Shown: in pieces, positions 2,461-16,348 of the stretch
Position numbering within the stretch: position 1 is the first letter of the stretch
Layout of the letters: every line of letters begins with the position of its first letter
NCBI GenBank assembly: GCA_030630095.1
Contig: DAOVNW010000001.1
Coordinates: forward strand, 1 to 28,928
Direction: 5' to 3'
Origin: Candidatus Omnitrophota bacterium
GTDB lineage: Bacteria; Omnitrophota; Gorgyraeia; JAGLLT01
DNA: 28,928 nucleotides
The notes under the pieces: generated by a model
Told to the model about the DNA's origin: nothing
The model's input: only the letters and a program-made list of their open reading frames with translations
Database searches by the model: none
Made by a program: the position numbers and the translations under genes

Positions 2461-5154
2461 CTAACAGGTTATTGAATCTACAAATTTATTCCAGTCATAT
2501 TTATTTGGTTTTGTTTTTGCCATTTTTTTCTTTAAAGAATCTTTTAAAGTGCTTTTTATTTTTTCAGGGTTACGACCTTTTAATTTCTTTTCAACTACCA
2601 TTTCTCTGGTTTTTGCTATTTCTTTTATTTTAGCAGTAGCAGAGTCTGGCGTTCTTTCTGCTGATAACCTTAGCGTCTGGGCTGCTGCGCTTATTTCTGT
2701 AGCTATAGGCGAATTAGCTAAATCCATTGCCAATTGACCATCTTTGGTTTGCATAGCATAATCTTCCATTACCTGTAAAGCTGTTGCGCCTTTTAATCCC
2801 TCTGGCAAGGCTTCTCTACCAGTTGCAATTCTTTTAGCTTTCTCAATATTCATTCTCATTATAGTAGCCATTTTATCAGCCTGTTCTTTAATAACCGCAG
2901 GAGTATATTCAGCTAATTCATTGAAACCTTTATCAATTAAACCTTTTTCTACAGCTTTGGCTTGAATGCTTTTTGCTACACCACTAACTTTTTTAGGTTC
3001 TTCTCTCGGCTTAAACGCCTCTACCTTTGCTTTCTTAGGTTCAAATGCCTTAACTTCCGGCTTGTGGGCTTGCTCAGATGTAGACAACTGCAACAGTTGT
3101 GTTTTGTTTAACCGTTCAACAATCTTACTCTTATCAAGAGGTGTGGCGTGTACTCTTACACGCCTACTTATTTCATAAGTTCCATCAGGTTTTCTTATTG
3201 CTTCTAATACAACCTTTCCGCCTTCTGCCGCATAAGTTGCAAAACCTGTTTTACCAAGAATAATGTCTACTTCATTTCTTGTCGCTCCATAAGGCTTATA
3301 AACGATGCCTCTCTCTGTCGCAAGCGTAGGATCCTTTAGAGATAACAGATATTCTGTTAATTGTTTTGCTTCTGCTCTATTTATATCTAGCCCCTGTCTC
3401 CCAAGTTTAGAACGACCTACTTCACGGAGCAACTCTTGTGCTGTTTTAAACCTACTGCCTTCTTCTTTCACCAAACCCTTCTTGGCTTCGGCTTCTAAGG
3501 AGACTGGGGCTTTCGGTTTAAACGCTTCAAGAGCAGGCTTTTCAGCAGGCTTATAGATATTATACATTCCTAAATTATCAATATCATCAGCTTTAATAGC
3601 GGCCTTTACATTCTCAAGTTTAGTCAAGGCACTCTTAATCGCCGCCGGAGTAGCTTTTCTGTCCGCTATAGGTGTCATATTACCAATAATATCGCCTGTG
3701 AGAGTCTTTTTAAGGGTATCTAACTTGATTCCGGGAGTCTTTGCTACACTGGCAATAGCTTTGTCAACCTGGGCCACGCCAGACTTAGGCAATGCTTTCA
3801 CTATAGGCTTAAAGGCTTCTGCGGGTTTAATATCTTTAAAAGTTTTCTTAATAACTGGTTTAAATGGTTCTGCTTTAGGCGTAACCTTAATGGGTTTTTT
3901 TAAAAATTCTTTGGTTAGTTTCTCATAAGCAGCATTGATTCTTATAAACTTCTGGGTAGCTTTTATCGGGTTTTTAGGATTTTTGTCTGGATGCCATTTA
4001 ACTGCTAATTTACGATAAGCACTTTTTACCGCTTGCGGAGAAGCCCCCTCTTTTAAGCCTAACTCCTGAAAAGCAGTTTTAGGCAGAGCTTTAAATATAT
4101 TTCCTACAGGCTCAAAGAACATTTTTCTAAGAATAGTGTCTGCTTTTCCGCCTGCTTTTAATACTTCCTTTTGAAAGAACGGTTTTTTTGCTAATGTTCC
4201 AAATATAACTGGGAATGCTTTTTGAATACCATACATTATTGCATACGATTGTGGTTTAGTGAAAAACTCCGTCATACCACCCCAAAAATCATACGCAAAC
4301 TTTTCAATATTGCCTTTAGGGTTTTTTAATTCAGATGGTTTTTGGAAGTCTTGCGGGTAATTGAGTTGACGTTGCATTATTTCATCCCAACCCATAGGAT
4401 TACCCTCGATGTCTCTTTGCATAAATTCTTCTTCTGTTATGCCTAATCTATCATCTTTTTCACCCCATAAAATATCTTGCGAAGCACCTTTAACTCCTTT
4501 AGGTAATTGGAATAATAACGCATGTTTTAATGCTGATTGATTTTCTTTTAAAAGCGTAGTTATATCTTTTAAAGGTTCTCCCAATGGAGTTATAAAATCT
4601 ATAGGTTTTATTCGGTCTCCAAATATTTTTCTTGTTATTTTTTGCCTTATTGTTGGTTTCCAAGGACTGATTGTTCCTGCGGTGGGCTGTGAGTAATAAC
4701 GTCCGTCTTTTCTTTTTGTTATATAATAACCGGCTTCTTTTTCTCCTTGTTCTGTTAAATGAAAAGTGGGATGTTTACGCCCTTTTAAAATTTGTCCTGT
4801 TTCCGGGGTTCGGCTTGGCCAATGGCCTGTTTCATCAGGGCTTATACCGTATTTTTCCGCTGTCTCATAATCATAGCCAGCCCCCTCTGGATCAAACTTT
4901 TCAGTAGCTTCTTTAGGTAGAAATACCTCACCTAATGCCTTTGGTAGTTTCTGCAATAAAGAAGGAGTCTTTTGGATATGAGTCGGAGGCACATCTCTAA
5001 AAATAACAGTCCTTATATTTTCATCAGAAGCAGAGTCGTAATCCGGGTCTGATTTTATTGTAAAATCATACCAATCCTCTAAAATAAGTCGCTTTTTATC
5101 AGGATCAGCTTTTTGGTAGTTTTCATGCTCTAATACTTCGGACAATCTTGTCAT
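2461..5154 (-). CDS. Large multidomain putative ejection/internal virion protein containing a DnaJ J-domain
   Basis: 897-aa ORF with an ATGA overlap with the upstream gene. Residues ~362-415 read AFQELGLKEGASPQAVKSAYRKLAVKWHPDKNPKNPIKATQKFIRINAAYEKL, a J-domain. Lys/Pro-rich linkers separate the modules. Confidence 0.7.
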   Translation of the reverse strand: MTRLSEVLEHENYQKADPDKKRLILEDWYDFTIKSDPDYDSASDENIRTVIFRDVPPTHIQKTPSLLQKLPKALGEVFLPKEATEKFDPEGAGYDYETAEKYGISPDETGHWPSRTPETGQILKGRKHPTFHLTEQGEKEAGYYITKRKDGRYYSQPTAGTISPWKPTIRQKITRKIFGDRIKPIDFITPLGEPLKDITTLLKENQSALKHALLFQLPKGVKGASQDILWGEKDDRLGITEEEFMQRDIEGNPMGWDEIMQRQLNYPQDFQKPSELKNPKGNIEKFAYDFWGGMTEFFTKPQSYAIMYGIQKAFPVIFGTLAKKPFFQKEVLKAGGKADTILRKMFFEPVGNIFKALPKTAFQELGLKEGASPQAVKSAYRKLAVKWHPDKNPKNPIKATQKFIRINAAYEKLTKEFLKKPIKVTPKAEPFKPVIKKTFKDIKPAEAFKPIVKALPKSGVAQVDKAIASVAKTPGIKLDTLKKTLTGDIIGNMTPIADRKATPAAIKSALTKLENVKAAIKADDIDNLGMYNIYKPAEKPALEAFKPKAPVSLEAEAKKGLVKEEGSRFKTAQELLREVGRSKLGRQGLDINRAEAKQLTEYLLSLKDPTLATERGIVYKPYGATRNEVDIILGKTGFATYAAEGGKVVLEAIRKPDGTYEISRRVRVHATPLDKSKIVERLNKTQLLQLSTSEQAHKPEVKAFEPKKAKVEAFKPREEPKKVSGVAKSIQAKAVEKGLIDKGFNELAEYTPAVIKEQADKMATIMRMNIEKAKRIATGREALPEGLKGATALQVMEDYAMQTKDGQLAMDLANSPIATEISAAAQTLRLSAERTPDSATAKIKEIAKTREMVVEKKLKGRNPEKIKSTLKDSLKKKMAKTKPNKYDWNKFVDSITC
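3916..4074 (-). other. J-domain (DnaJ/Hsp40 type) coding segment; HPD at 3985..3993
   Basis: Matches the J-domain consensus across all helices: 'LGL...AS...VKSAYRKLA..WHPDKNP.....A..KF..IN.AYE.L'. Confidence 0.92.
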
Positions 5155-5822
5155 TTGTATTTAGTCTCCAACCTATCTAAAAAACTTCCTTGGGAGCCAT
5201 AACTACCGCCCCCGGTTAGCTCTTTCATTTTCTTAGCAGTCTCAAGTTTCCGGGCCTCTATAATATCAGGCCTCTCACGCCATTTATCGTCAGGGGTCTG
5301 CTCCCAACCTTTTGGGCCGTATTCTCTTTCAAGTCTAAACTGCGCTAAACTTTTCGCAAGACTTTTGTCATATTCTTCGGTTTCTTTTCTTTTAGTTTCT
5401 TGAGCGCGTTTAAAAGTAGGACTTTCACGCCAGCCGGTAGGTGTTTTTTCCCAGCCACTCTGACTGTATTTTTCAGCAAGTTCTTGTTGTGCCTGACGTT
5501 GCTGAAATGCCTCACGTCTCTTGGCCTGGGTTTCCTCTGCAAGTCTGGTTTTTTCTGCCAGTTCTCTTTTTTCTTTCGCCATCCAGCTTTCTCCAAATGA
5601 CGCACGAACAGCAGCCACTGGATCGCTTATTCTTCCTGGTTGGCTATAAACCCGCCTTGTGCCTCCTCCGCCCCCACCTGAGGGCATACTTCTCAAAGTC
5701 AAAGCGCGTGCCTCTAAGGCTAACCTCTGCTCGGCTAAGTCCAGGCTTTTCTTCTCCGCTTCATTTGCTAATATTTGCGCAGGACTCAAGGCCATGGTAT
5801 TCGCGTCAATTCCGTAGGACAT
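5151..5822 (-). CDS. Putative small ejection/internal virion protein
   Basis: 223 aa, charged and helical with no Cys. RBS AAGGAG. Contains two YxxxGWExTP...WRExP repeats. Located in the ejection block. Confidence 0.55.
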   Translation of the reverse strand: MSYGIDANTMALSPAQILANEAEKKSLDLAEQRLALEARALTLRSMPSGGGGGGTRRVYSQPGRISDPVAAVRASFGESWMAKEKRELAEKTRLAEETQAKRREAFQQRQAQQELAEKYSQSGWEKTPTGWRESPTFKRAQETKRKETEEYDKSLAKSLAQFRLEREYGPKGWEQTPDDKWRERPDIIEARKLETAKKMKELTGGGSYGSQGSFLDRLETKYK

Positions 5823-5847
5823 AGTTATTTTCTCCTTATTTTATAGG

Positions 5848-6537
5848 TCATGCGTATGTTAGCTGGGGTATGGCAGTAATAGTTTGACCGTAAGTTGATT
5901 TCAAGGCTTCCGCGCCTCGTTGCTGTATATCTCCTACTTGCTGGCCATACTTACTCCATAAATCAGCTACCTGCGCTTTTCGCTTCTCTTTACCGCCTAT
6001 TTTTTCAAGTTCAATCTTACGCCTTAAATCCGCTAACTGGCCAGTCGTGCCGGCCATTACACCACGTGTTTGAGCTTGTCTAAAACCTCCAGGCCCGCCT
6101 GATTCTGATAGTTCTCTCATCTGCGCTTGTGCCCCGGCTTCGATTCCAGTTCTACCGGCTTCATACATCTGACTGGTTTCCTGTTCTCCTATAGCTTGCG
6201 GAGAGGCCGCTAAGCCCTCTATCTGCTGTTTAAACGGGTCTAAGGCCCCTAAACTTGCCTCTTTACCTGCTCTTATTTCAGCTAATGCAGATGTCCTGTC
6301 TGCCGCCGCTCCGGCTTGAGTCGCTTGCATAGCTTCCATAAAAGGCTTATATTGTGAGTCAAATGTTCCTTTAGGCTGGCCCCGGTAGTGCCTGCTTTTA
6401 GGGTCTGAATATGCCCGCTGTTGACGGGCTTCTGTTTCTGCAAGCACCATTTGCCGATTTCTTATATCCATGGGGCTACCTTTTTGATATCCATGTTGCC
6501 TTCCGTAAGCGGTTTCAGAACCAGGTCGATAAGACAT
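5848..6537 (-). CDS. Putative small ejection/pilot protein
   Basis: 229 aa, rich in Gly/Ala/Gln with no Cys. RBS GAGGAGG. It is the first gene after the tail genes, the position of P22 gp7/gp20-like pilot proteins. Confidence 0.55.
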   Translation of the reverse strand: MSYRPGSETAYGRQHGYQKGSPMDIRNRQMVLAETEARQQRAYSDPKSRHYRGQPKGTFDSQYKPFMEAMQATQAGAAADRTSALAEIRAGKEASLGALDPFKQQIEGLAASPQAIGEQETSQMYEAGRTGIEAGAQAQMRELSESGGPGGFRQAQTRGVMAGTTGQLADLRRKIELEKIGGKEKRKAQVADLWSKYGQQVGDIQQRGAEALKSTYGQTITAIPQLTYA

Positions 6538-6562
6538 ATTGCTACCTCCTCTTGTTATTCTT

Positions 6563-7102
6563 TTAAAATGGTTGTATTCCTTTAGAATCTATATCTACTG
6601 CTAATGTAAGTGTTCCTCCAGCGGCTGTTCCATGGTCAGTCGCAATTCCTAAACTTTGTTCCAGACCAGATGTCGGTAAAACGTTTGTTACATGCCCCGC
6701 GGTTGAGCTTAGCCATATCTTATTACCTTGACTTACTGTAATACCGCTTTGAATCGGCACATCAGATATTATTCCGTAATTCTGTACTAAAGCATTAGAC
6801 CCGTCTGTATAAAGGCAAAATGCGCGTGTCTTTTTATTGTTATCATCCGCGTCTGCTAAATTAACTGTATTAACACCTGAAAAATAAACCGGCATACCGG
6901 CTCTTAATAAATTACTGCTGCCGTCAATAAACCAGGCGGAGTTTTGCGTTATTGTATTTAACTGCGCGTCTGTAACTAAGTTTAAACCGTCTGCTATGTT
7001 TTCGTTATCTATATTACCATTAAGCAAAGCCAGGACAGACCTGACAAAGTCGTTATATCTTTTCTCACCGTTTACATTAAATCTATTTGCTATAAGACCC
7101 AT
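6563..7102 (-). CDS. Putative tail-tip/virion structural protein
   Basis: 179 aa with a TGATG overlap with the nozzle gene. An N-terminal helical segment (LLNGNIDNENI) precedes a beta-rich domain (G.PVY.SG.....LADAD...G..IWLS.TAG.VT...P..G..Q.LGIA) of a type common in phage fibre and cement proteins. Confidence 0.55.
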   Translation of the reverse strand: MGLIANRFNVNGEKRYNDFVRSVLALLNGNIDNENIADGLNLVTDAQLNTITQNSAWFIDGSSNLLRAGMPVYFSGVNTVNLADADDNNKKTRAFCLYTDGSNALVQNYGIISDVPIQSGITVSQGNKIWLSSTAGHVTNVLPTSGLEQSLGIATDHGTAAGGTLTLAVDIDSKGIQPF

Positions 7103-15533: not shown

Positions 15534-16348
15534 CACATTTGTTATGCTACTGCTACGGCATTTCTGCATAGCTCTGTATGTCGCCATACAGGTCGGACTA
15601 TCTCATCACTCTGATTACTCAGAGGCACATCGCACGAATCAACATAGCGTAAATTTAATTTATATTTCATTGAAGGAATTATATATGGAGTAATTATCTT
15701 AAATAACTTTTTAGCTTCTTCTGTCCCACAAGATAACTTCCAATATTGCCCTTTCTTTGAAACATTAAACTTAACACTAAATCTATCCTCAATTAAATCT
15801 CTAAGGATTTGATTTTCTTCAAGAGTGAAACCTTCCGTGTGTAAACTAATTCTTCTGGAAGATATACGATATACATGATGTTTGTTATATGATTTGCTGA
15901 AACATATTGACCCATCATCCATATACCAAAAAGCAAGCCCTTCATCAGTCAATCTCTTAACGAATTTAGCAAATTGTTTGCTTCTTTCTTTTAATTGAGT
16001 ATAAAGTGGGTGAATCCTTGTTGATACTGTTATACAATCATAGCCCCCACATTTTACCTCTGTTACTTTGACCTTTGTCAAAGCAGAAAGATAATCAGCT
16101 TTAAATTTTGCGTATTCGGCTTGCTTGATAGAATGTGTTATGCGAACACTGACATTTTTGCCTTCTTTTGCTTTTGCAAAACATGCATCGCCTAACCACA
16201 TTCCTATTACTCCGCCCTTGAATTTTCTAATTTTATGTTGATTCATAGTCTCTACACTCCTTACGCAGCTTGCGCAAGTTGGCACGGGATTGTCTCAAAG
16301 AGGTTTTCCCCGTTTTCGGATGTGTTTATACTGGACAGATTGTCGTTT
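15534..16348 (-). mobile_element. Group I self-splicing intron (815 nt, IA-like: ORF looped out of P7.1)
   Basis: P1 exon ACUGGAU/IGS GUCCAGU with U-G at the splice site. P10 GGAU/AUCU. P3 CACAUCCG/CGAUGUG. P4 ACGGG/CCCGU. P6a CUUGCGCA/UGCGUAAG. R element GUAGAGACUA and S element GAUGAGAUAGUCC (P7). P7.1 is 12 bp. P8 CUCUGA-GUAA-UCAGAG. P9 CUGUAUG-GCGA-CAUACAG. Terminal G at 15534. Confidence 0.93.
15542..16246 (-). CDS. Intron-encoded LAGLIDADG homing endonuclease (two-motif type), 234 aa
   Basis: Motifs GVIGMWLGDAC and EGLAFWYMDDGS, followed by 'ISLHTEGFTLEEN..L...I..RF.VKF'. Probable start is the ATG at 16246, with AAGGAG 10 nt upstream. Confidence 0.9.
   Translation of the reverse strand: MNQHKIRKFKGGVIGMWLGDACFAKAKEGKNVSVRITHSIKQAEYAKFKADYLSALTKVKVTEVKCGGYDCITVSTRIHPLYTQLKERSKQFAKFVKRLTDEGLAFWYMDDGSICFSKSYNKHHVYRISSRRISLHTEGFTLEENQILRDLIEDRFSVKFNVSKKGQYWKLSCGTEEAKKLFKIITPYIIPSMKYKLNLRYVDSCDVPLSNQSDEIVRPVWRHTELCRNAVAVA

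Follow-up and report, generated by a model that had tools for sequence, protein, structure and literature searches.

We analysed a 28,928-nucleotide stretch of DNA, referred to below as the window, in which a phage gene encodes the 897-residue protein P0001 with a J-domain in its interior (Table 1). The first-pass annotation had placed a full J-domain, HPD tripeptide included, at positions 3916-4074 in the middle of an ejection-block gene, and had called for a profile search with the DnaJ domain. That search agrees with the placement: the Pfam DnaJ model (PF00226) matches residues 362-416 at 60.1 bits (E 2.2e-16; profile positions 3-56 of 63) against a gathering cut-off of 27.8, and these residues correspond to window positions 3907-4071 on the minus strand, which is essentially the interval proposed. 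The match is far beyond chance, and the segment is a bona fide member of PF00226. It is the sole Pfam domain found in P0001, where it lies internally, at 40% of the length. Compared with solved structures over 54 residues, the segment scores 55.7 bits (E 4e-14) with the J-domain of human DNAJB8 and 32.9 bits with the J-domain of Escherichia coli DnaJ in its complex with DnaK (5NRO). The HPD of P0001 is intact and aligns with the HPD of the DNAJB8, DNAJB6 and HCG3 J-domains, and both the basic helix II (AYRKLAVKW) and the hydrophobic helix III (F.RINAAYEKL) match solved J-domains residue for residue. The helix II signature AYRKLA.KWHPDKNP and the helix III signature F..I..AYE.L are likewise retained. 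The segment does not stand out from the whole gene in GC content (36.8% against 37.6%), which gives no sign of a very recent insertion. We consider the J-domain of P0001 very probably competent for Hsp70.

Table 1. Features of the window around the J-protein gene
Feature	Window position	Strand	Remarks
J-protein P0001, 897 residues	2461..5154	-	Mosaic, polyvalent-type; start overlaps the stop of the upstream gene (ATGA)
J-domain	3883..4086	-	Residues 357-424; Pfam envelope 362-416; from solved J-domain alignment and local profile
HPD tripeptide	3985..3993	-	Hsp70-activating motif; His388-Pro389-Asp390, codons CAT CCA GAC
Mobile module, residues 85-157	4684..4902	-	Common to other phage/GGDEF proteins
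Linker after J-domain, 144 residues	3475..3906	-	Lys/Ala/Pro-rich low complexity (K 28, A 22, P 14 of 144)
Module, residues 561-692	3079..3474	-	65% identity with an unrelated protein of 1389 residues (P0012)
C-module, residues ~709-897	2464..3030	-	Helical, family-defining; ends in invariant Cys897
g663 partner, 663 residues	461..2452	-	All-helical; single Cys at residue 5
Facing cysteines	2464-2466 (Cys897, J-protein); 2438-2440 (Cys5, g663)	-	Conserved across loci L001-L102
Three small proteins (223, 229, 179 residues)	5151..7102	-	Between nozzle-like gene and J-protein; P22 gp14/gp7-type position
Tail-hub block as a whole	7102..11117	-	Adaptor, NHL-repeat and nozzle-like genes
Nozzle-like protein, 684 residues	7102-9156	-	Tail-hub gene upstream of J-protein
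NHL-repeat protein	9156-10214	-	Tail-hub gene upstream of J-protein
SU10-type adaptor	10224-11117	-	Tail-hub gene upstream of J-protein

P0001 is a mosaic of at least five separable modules that are common to different proteins; only the J-domain can be identified, and database relatives match parts of P0001, not its full length. The module at residues 85-157 shares 68% identity with a GGDEF-domain protein (P0014) and also lies inside a 651-residue protein of a crAss-like phage. It stands alone as a 90-residue protein (57% identity) in the marine, T7-like Autographiviridae phage MedDCM-OCT-S45-C18, where its gene sits in the head module between the scaffold and capsid genes. The crAss-like match (cr111_1) was considered as a culturable system and set aside, as it falls in a non-structural hypothetical protein. 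The linker behind the J-domain contains many Ile and Leu residues as well and is probably extended in conformation. It holds three of the five copies of a short motif, [AP]-F-[KE]-P (mostly EAFKP), which recurs at module borders of P0001 (residues 430, 447, 544, 703 and 713) and has no copy in 151 of the 160 relatives compared; it could serve as a recurring linker, for processing or for docking. When the other P0001 modules and the three small proteins encoded upstream were scanned leniently with Pfam (E<=5), nothing usable emerged, and an Atlas feature search with residues 1-355 returned only unnamed viral clusters and a weak row for a P22 gp16 domain (score 0.86).

The last ~190 residues of P0001, here called the C-module, show 45-67% identity with proteins of 570-1315 residues. 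With the C-module as query, an exhaustive HMMER search matched 1,969 cluster representatives at E<=1e-3, of which 1,254 remained at E<=1e-10. In all of the best 150 matches the module is C-terminal, within proteins of about 430-2,581 residues, fragments aside, and the C-terminal cysteine is invariant in the family members aligned (48/48). The module is helical in an AlphaFold2 (AF2) model, with a predicted local distance difference test (pLDDT) value of 85.8. The N-terminal parts of family members are essentially unrelated, their mean column identity being 6-7%; as judged by alignment, only the C-module is conserved and the N-terminal cargo varies across the family. In a Pfam census of the N-terminal parts of 138 family members, ART-PolyVal was found in nine (best E 2e-28) and DnaJ, the second most frequent recognisable cargo domain, in seven. 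Zeta_toxin occurred in four members, PBECR2 and RelA_SpoT in two each and PBECR3 in one, and one member each carried ddrB-ParB (E 2.9e-21), an SLT transglycosylase (E 7.6e-30), or a lysozyme-like, N6_N4 DNA methylase, Sigma70_r4, PDDEXK_6, PARP or Tpt1/KptA domain. Beyond the census, GNAT and a second ddrB-ParB (E 6e-23) were found in loci L014 and L104, among IMG/VR and prophage members. The presence of hallmark polyvalent domains in its relatives places P0001 in the polyvalent class at the level of the family.

The C-module is accompanied by a partner, encoded in the window by the gene g663. A g663 homologue directly follows the C-module gene at all 15 loci with downstream DNA, and in a second set, of 80 loci found via g663, 74 of the upstream genes carry the C-module. 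The partner proteins have 560-950 residues, and the g663 model (AF2) has a pLDDT of 73.6; no Pfam, PHROG, PDB-sequence or fold relative of g663 was found. At two loci the pair is fused into a single protein. In the first (L076; 1,429 residues) the C-module occupies residues 635-794 and is followed by the g663 region, and in the second (L089; 1,819 residues) it occupies residues 949-1091. A cysteine lies within the last three residues of 73 of the 74 C-module proteins and within the first 20 residues of every partner (74/74), usually at position 3-5 and usually as the only cysteine of that protein. These junction cysteines are missing in both fused loci, and the L076 protein contains no cysteine at all. 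The constant pairing, the two fusions and the cysteine pattern argue that the C-module and g663 are one functional unit. Because the junction cysteines disappear when the genes fuse, the cysteine pair appears to stand in for a peptide bond, which suggests a disulfide or another covalent end-to-end link. Complex prediction weakly supports the contact: the C-module with g663 scored 0.55 (best control, 0.00), a mark attained by 58 out of 80 solved complexes and by 2 out of 110 mismatched pairs. Of these, however, only 7 of the 80 solved complexes, but both passing mismatched pairs, lay at 0.60 or under. At least 17% of contacts are common to the runs, and the partner pLDDT is at least 54.

Between the window and other phage contigs (L001-L016), the C-module and g663 are 35-65% identical. 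The nozzle, adaptor, portal and capsid proteins of the window were not detectable in the 10-kb flanks of those loci at E 1e-4, and the C-module/g663 pair behaves, on this comparison, as a conserved or exchangeable cassette. Neither of the two matched a Pfam model, PDB sequence-profile searches with both gave chance-level rows only, and no significant match to their AF2 models came from the PDB, BFVD, the ESM Atlas or a wide VIA-align search. In BFVD the top rows, at E 0.05-0.3, belong to large phage proteins, one of them a 'PolyVal ADP-ribosyltransferase', and serve as leads only. The search for C-module loci in viral contigs required an alignment as query; with a single C-module sequence it returned no loci. 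We conclude from sequence comparison that the C-module and g663 define a large uncharacterised family of ~1,250 representatives, in which an anchor module with an obligatory partner is joined to polyvalent cargo, and that P0001 is likely to be a polyvalent-type protein anchored to g663.

All large open reading frames (ORFs) of the window are on the minus strand, and their predicted products give the gene order of a short-tailed, podovirus-type phage. The order starts with the small and large terminase, a P22-like portal, a scaffold-sized protein and the major capsid protein. It continues with a LAGLIDADG endonuclease, an 820-residue protein, a CxxCxxCC protein, the SU10-type adaptor and the NHL-repeat protein, and it ends with the nozzle-like protein, the three small proteins, the J-protein, g663 and a gene truncated at the contig end. 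TerS, TerL, portal, capsid, adaptor and nozzle genes are thus upstream of the J-protein gene on its own strand, and the same holds in relatives. As the start of the J-protein gene overlaps the preceding stop, the gene is part of the late operon. The assignment of this gene to the ejection block by the first-pass annotation is supported by its place in a late structural operon, after the adaptor and nozzle, in a P22-type ejection slot: by the P22 gene order, the last genes of the window fall where P22 encodes gp14, gp7, gp20 and gp16.

In relatives, a CHAP or LysM protein is encoded just upstream, and the C-module/g663 pair closes the late module. A J-bearing locus from a Patescibacteria metagenome-assembled genome (MAG; L017) starts with a CBM fibre protein, an Amidase_2 protein, proteins of 463 and 704 residues and an 844-residue CHAP protein, and continues with a J/PBECR2 polyvalent protein, the g663 homologue, leftward genes and an integrase. 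At locus L021, and in a similar context at L022, a LysM protein precedes a methylase-bearing polyvalent protein, and lysis and replication genes come after the g663 homologue. At L104 the cassette is embedded in a Pyrinomonadaceae contig of 338 kb and so belongs to a true prophage. The wall-binding or wall-degrading proteins upstream, together with the SLT domain in one member, would be expected if the proteins cross the cell envelope on ejection, and fit such a role.

The first-pass annotation had proposed a survey of J-domains in ejection-block genes of related phages, and the seven DnaJ-bearing proteins among the 138 C-module members show that the J-domain recurs in this family. A second, shorter-loop type of J-domain, ending in HPD[KRN]GG, is present in P0078, P0076, P0138, P0081, P0073 and P0088. 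Four of these (P0138, P0081, P0076 and P0078) are above the Pfam DnaJ cut-off at 28.5-32.1 bits, and P0088 and P0073 are at 24 bits. The HPD is intact in all six relatives with a verified J-domain, so that the loss of HPD in J-bearing homologues, which had been named as evidence that would speak against the annotation, is not what we found. In five of the six, the second-type J-domain starts 280-320 residues in, after a common N-terminal module; in P0088 (481 residues) it starts at residue 11 and that module is missing. It precedes a Zeta-toxin domain in P0138, PBECR2 in P0078 and PARP/ART in P0088. The J-bearing members are 481-1246 residues long, five of the seven being above the family median of 692 residues.

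The J-domain of the window is 43% identical to that of a cellular DnaJ (P0015), in line with its DNAJB8 score, as against 33-40% identity and 8-12 phmmer bits with the second type, and the N-terminal contexts of the two types are unrelated. Its greater closeness to cellular DnaJ suggests a separate capture, so that the C-module family would have acquired a J-domain at least twice. Repeated capture in one family would in turn argue for a use of the module there. An ancestral unit of N-module plus J-domain that included the window protein was dropped, as jackhmmer searches started from the N-region of the window protein and from the IPD/YPD subgroup described below did not connect the subgroups through their N-terminal regions. 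A word-indexed search limited to the C-module gave 35 proteins and no further J-domain. In four other proteins (P0016 at locus L009, P0160, P0111 and P0101) the HPD of a J-like stretch is replaced by IPD or YPD, and Pfam DnaJ gives only 18 bits; this is at best a degenerate J-domain that would be unable to activate Hsp70, or else an unrelated helical segment. The IPD/YPD stretch sits at a fixed position after a common N-terminal module.

It has been argued that polyvalent proteins are carried in the capsid and injected along with the DNA (Iyer, Burroughs, Anand, de Souza and Aravind 2017; PMC5512222). Like P0001, they are large mosaics of rapidly shuffled modules encoded beside portal-terminase virion genes, and the ART-PolyVal, PBECR2/3, ddrB-ParB, Zeta toxin, DNA methylase and RelA/SpoT domains are shared with relatives of P0001. 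They differ in that P0001 itself has one recognisable domain only, and the main text of PMC5512222 contains no mention of a J-domain, DnaJ or Hsp70. The DdrB/Dar antirestriction proteins of phage P1 and Alt of T4 are experimentally established head-packaged, injected effectors (PMC5512222); a ddrB-like ParB domain also occurs in C-module family members, whereas these effectors belong to other phages, use other packaging signals and have no J-domain.

Among phage J-domain proteins, the first functional one was Rki (ORF 057w; 237 residues, early promoter) of the T4-related phage RB43 (PMC3486835). The first-pass annotation had attributed Rki to RB16, which carries an Rki-58 fusion; the characterised protein is that of RB43. 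Both Rki and P0001 present a phage J-domain with HPD, which in Rki, where this was tested, acts on host DnaK and helps infection by stabilising sigma-32. P0001 does not fit this type, however: Rki is small, is made early, carries its J-domain at the N-terminus and does not form part of the virion, whereas P0001, the 897-residue product of a late-operon gene, has its J-domain in the interior. In its replication region an uncultured 41-kb phage encodes another early J-protein that stands alone as Rki does (280 residues), and the known phage J-proteins, these two, are stand-alone early proteins. A J match in Pseudomonas phage Y6 was rejected as a culturable system, as it is a host-type, dnaK-dnaJ-like ORF pair in an unverified record.

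The ejection proteins of P22 (gp7, gp20 and gp16) and the internal core proteins of T7 (gp14, gp15 and gp16) are encoded at the same position, where the structural module ends, behind the adaptor and nozzle genes. They are also large and mostly helical, and one C-module family member has an SLT transglycosylase like the N-terminus of T7 gp16. In contrast, no sequence, profile or fold similarity to P0001 was detected: the T7 core chain 9jyy_G is matched at E of about 1 with a TM (template modelling) score of 0.08, Foldseek and VIA-align gave nothing above background, and for the C-module and g663 no Pfam or PHROG match was found, PDB profile searches being without a significant match. No characterised protein of this P22 and T7 group is known to carry a J-domain, and we found no paper on one. 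The searched literature yielded no paper on J-domains in polyvalent or ejection-block proteins, and none on this C-terminal anchor and its partner or on the facing-cysteine link. The view of the first-pass annotation that this is not a characterised system thus has to be narrowed: the protein that holds the J-domain belongs to the known polyvalent class, and it is for the J-domain as a module of that class that we found no report.

To account for these findings, we propose that P0001 is a late-module polyvalent cargo protein, which its C-module would dock to g663, probably covalently through the facing cysteines, and that the pair would sit where a P22-like podovirus has its ejection proteins. 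The cargo would be the variable N-terminal part, with the J-domain as its one recognisable module. Once packaged, P0001 would exit the capsid together with the DNA; the J-domain would refold in the cytoplasm, and its HPD loop would trigger ATP hydrolysis by the host DnaK. DnaK would most probably be loaded onto the unfolded chain of P0001 itself, at the Lys/Ala/Pro-rich linker, and its action in cis would refold the injected protein or draw it in. A Lys/Ala/Pro-rich linker containing Ile and Leu is the kind of sequence that DnaK binds. Action in cis is favoured because such a linker follows the J-domain and because the J-domain is N-terminal to the enzymatic cargo in relatives. Delivery of P0001 into the host is moderately likely on this evidence. 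That the J-domain acts on host DnaK at entry is close to evenly balanced, leaning slightly to the negative, and that it does so specifically in cis is a tentative and rather doubtful refinement. Our confidence in competence, anchoring, delivery, entry action and cis action is cumulative, each grade applying to the whole claim. We regard the proposal as the best explanation available, held as a whole with a little less than even confidence.

Several observations weigh against this proposal. The J-domain is the only module of P0001 with a recognisable function, and it is present in none of the 34 nearest C-module relatives and none of 74 IMG/VR relatives. Its sporadic occurrence, in seven of 138 representatives, means that it is not needed for the core role of the family. 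Neither sequence nor fold comparison linked the protein to a characterised ejection protein or other internal virion protein. There is no cultured relative; the C-module matches none of 50,697 phage records, and g663 weakly matches one uncultured record only. Neither seven other genomes of the MAG's order nor 400 genomes sampled from its phylum yielded the C-module cassette, and the MAG bin was for this reason not adopted as the phage host. Finally, late expression would be just as compatible with a role in the producing cell.

Such a role in the producing cell is the core of one alternative, in which late recruitment of DnaK keeps the large, partly disordered mosaic, and perhaps its partner, soluble or unfolded until it reaches the procapsid, with no part to play in the next host. 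The late-operon gene, translationally coupled to structural genes, and the long low-complexity linker would suit such an assembly aid, as would the somewhat greater length of J-bearing members, and DnaJ domains that occur sporadically in jumbo phages have been predicted to bring in host Hsp70 for folding and assembly (PMC7824862). Yet most family members, even longer ones of up to 2,581 residues, lack a J-domain, and this explanation does not account for the presence of the J-domain among host-directed effector modules; we consider it improbable. Those same effector modules suggest another possibility, a hijack in trans after the manner of Rki. Here a delivered or late-made J-domain, without a substrate-binding part of its own, would engage DnaK unproductively, stabilising sigma-32 or blocking DnaK-dependent functions, and would be a host-takeover weapon beside the ART, Zeta-toxin and RNase domains. 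The J-domain of RB43 Rki is DnaK-dependently toxic, stabilises sigma-32 and aids phage growth (PMC3486835), and no recognisable client-binding domain is attached to the J-domain of P0001. Rki, however, is small and early with an N-terminal J-domain, unlike the late, 100-kDa P0001 with its internal one; the few copies in a virion may not titrate an abundant chaperone; and the invariable position of the J-domain N-terminal to the accompanying effectors in relatives fits a helper role equally well. A trans hijack is unlikely in our assessment. It shares with the assembly aid and with action in cis a requirement for HPD and DnaK, and the three differ in timing and target.

A further alternative is that P0001 might not be a virion or ejected protein at all, being for example a late cytoplasmic effector or an assembly factor, or the J-domain might be a functionless passenger of recombination. 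No similarity of P0001 to known virion proteins was found, its modules are highly mobile, and among close relatives the J-domain is confined to the window lineage. A passenger would nevertheless not be expected to keep all J-domain signature residues intact, in a segment whose GC content is that of the gene, nor would an independent J-domain type be expected to recur in the family and to retain HPD in all six cases. The strict pairing with g663 in structural modules, together with the ddrB-ParB and ART-PolyVal domains, points to a virion role. We regard this alternative as very unlikely, and retain delivery of P0001 with a DnaK-directed J-domain as the preferred reading.

If the J-domain is delivered by the virion, the phage would engage the host chaperone at entry and not after early gene expression, and an entry-stage role for Hsp70 becomes testable. 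The proposal, if true, would also explain, in a form open to test, how large ejected proteins are taken in and refolded once they have passed a narrow tail channel. The facing cysteines suggest that two virion-block proteins are joined covalently end to end, a link that is easy to check. Taken furthest, several phage lineages might build a J-domain into proteins that are shot unfolded through the tail, with DnaK at the cytoplasmic exit serving as import ratchet and refolding motor, perhaps for the leading DNA too. In bacterial viruses this would be a counterpart of the import motors Pam18/mtHsp70, of mitochondria, and Sec63/BiP, the Cys-Cys-linked pair forming one continuous translocating chain; we consider this extension speculative and rather unlikely to hold in full.

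The window is an entire contig of 28.9 kb that was binned into a 1.15-Mb MAG, and this MAG encodes a DnaK. The contig is probably a fragment of a free phage genome that was binned with the MAG. Directly after the capsid gene, at 15542-16285, the window encodes the LAGLIDADG homing endonuclease (Pfam, 93.9 bits), which fits an earlier note of an intron.

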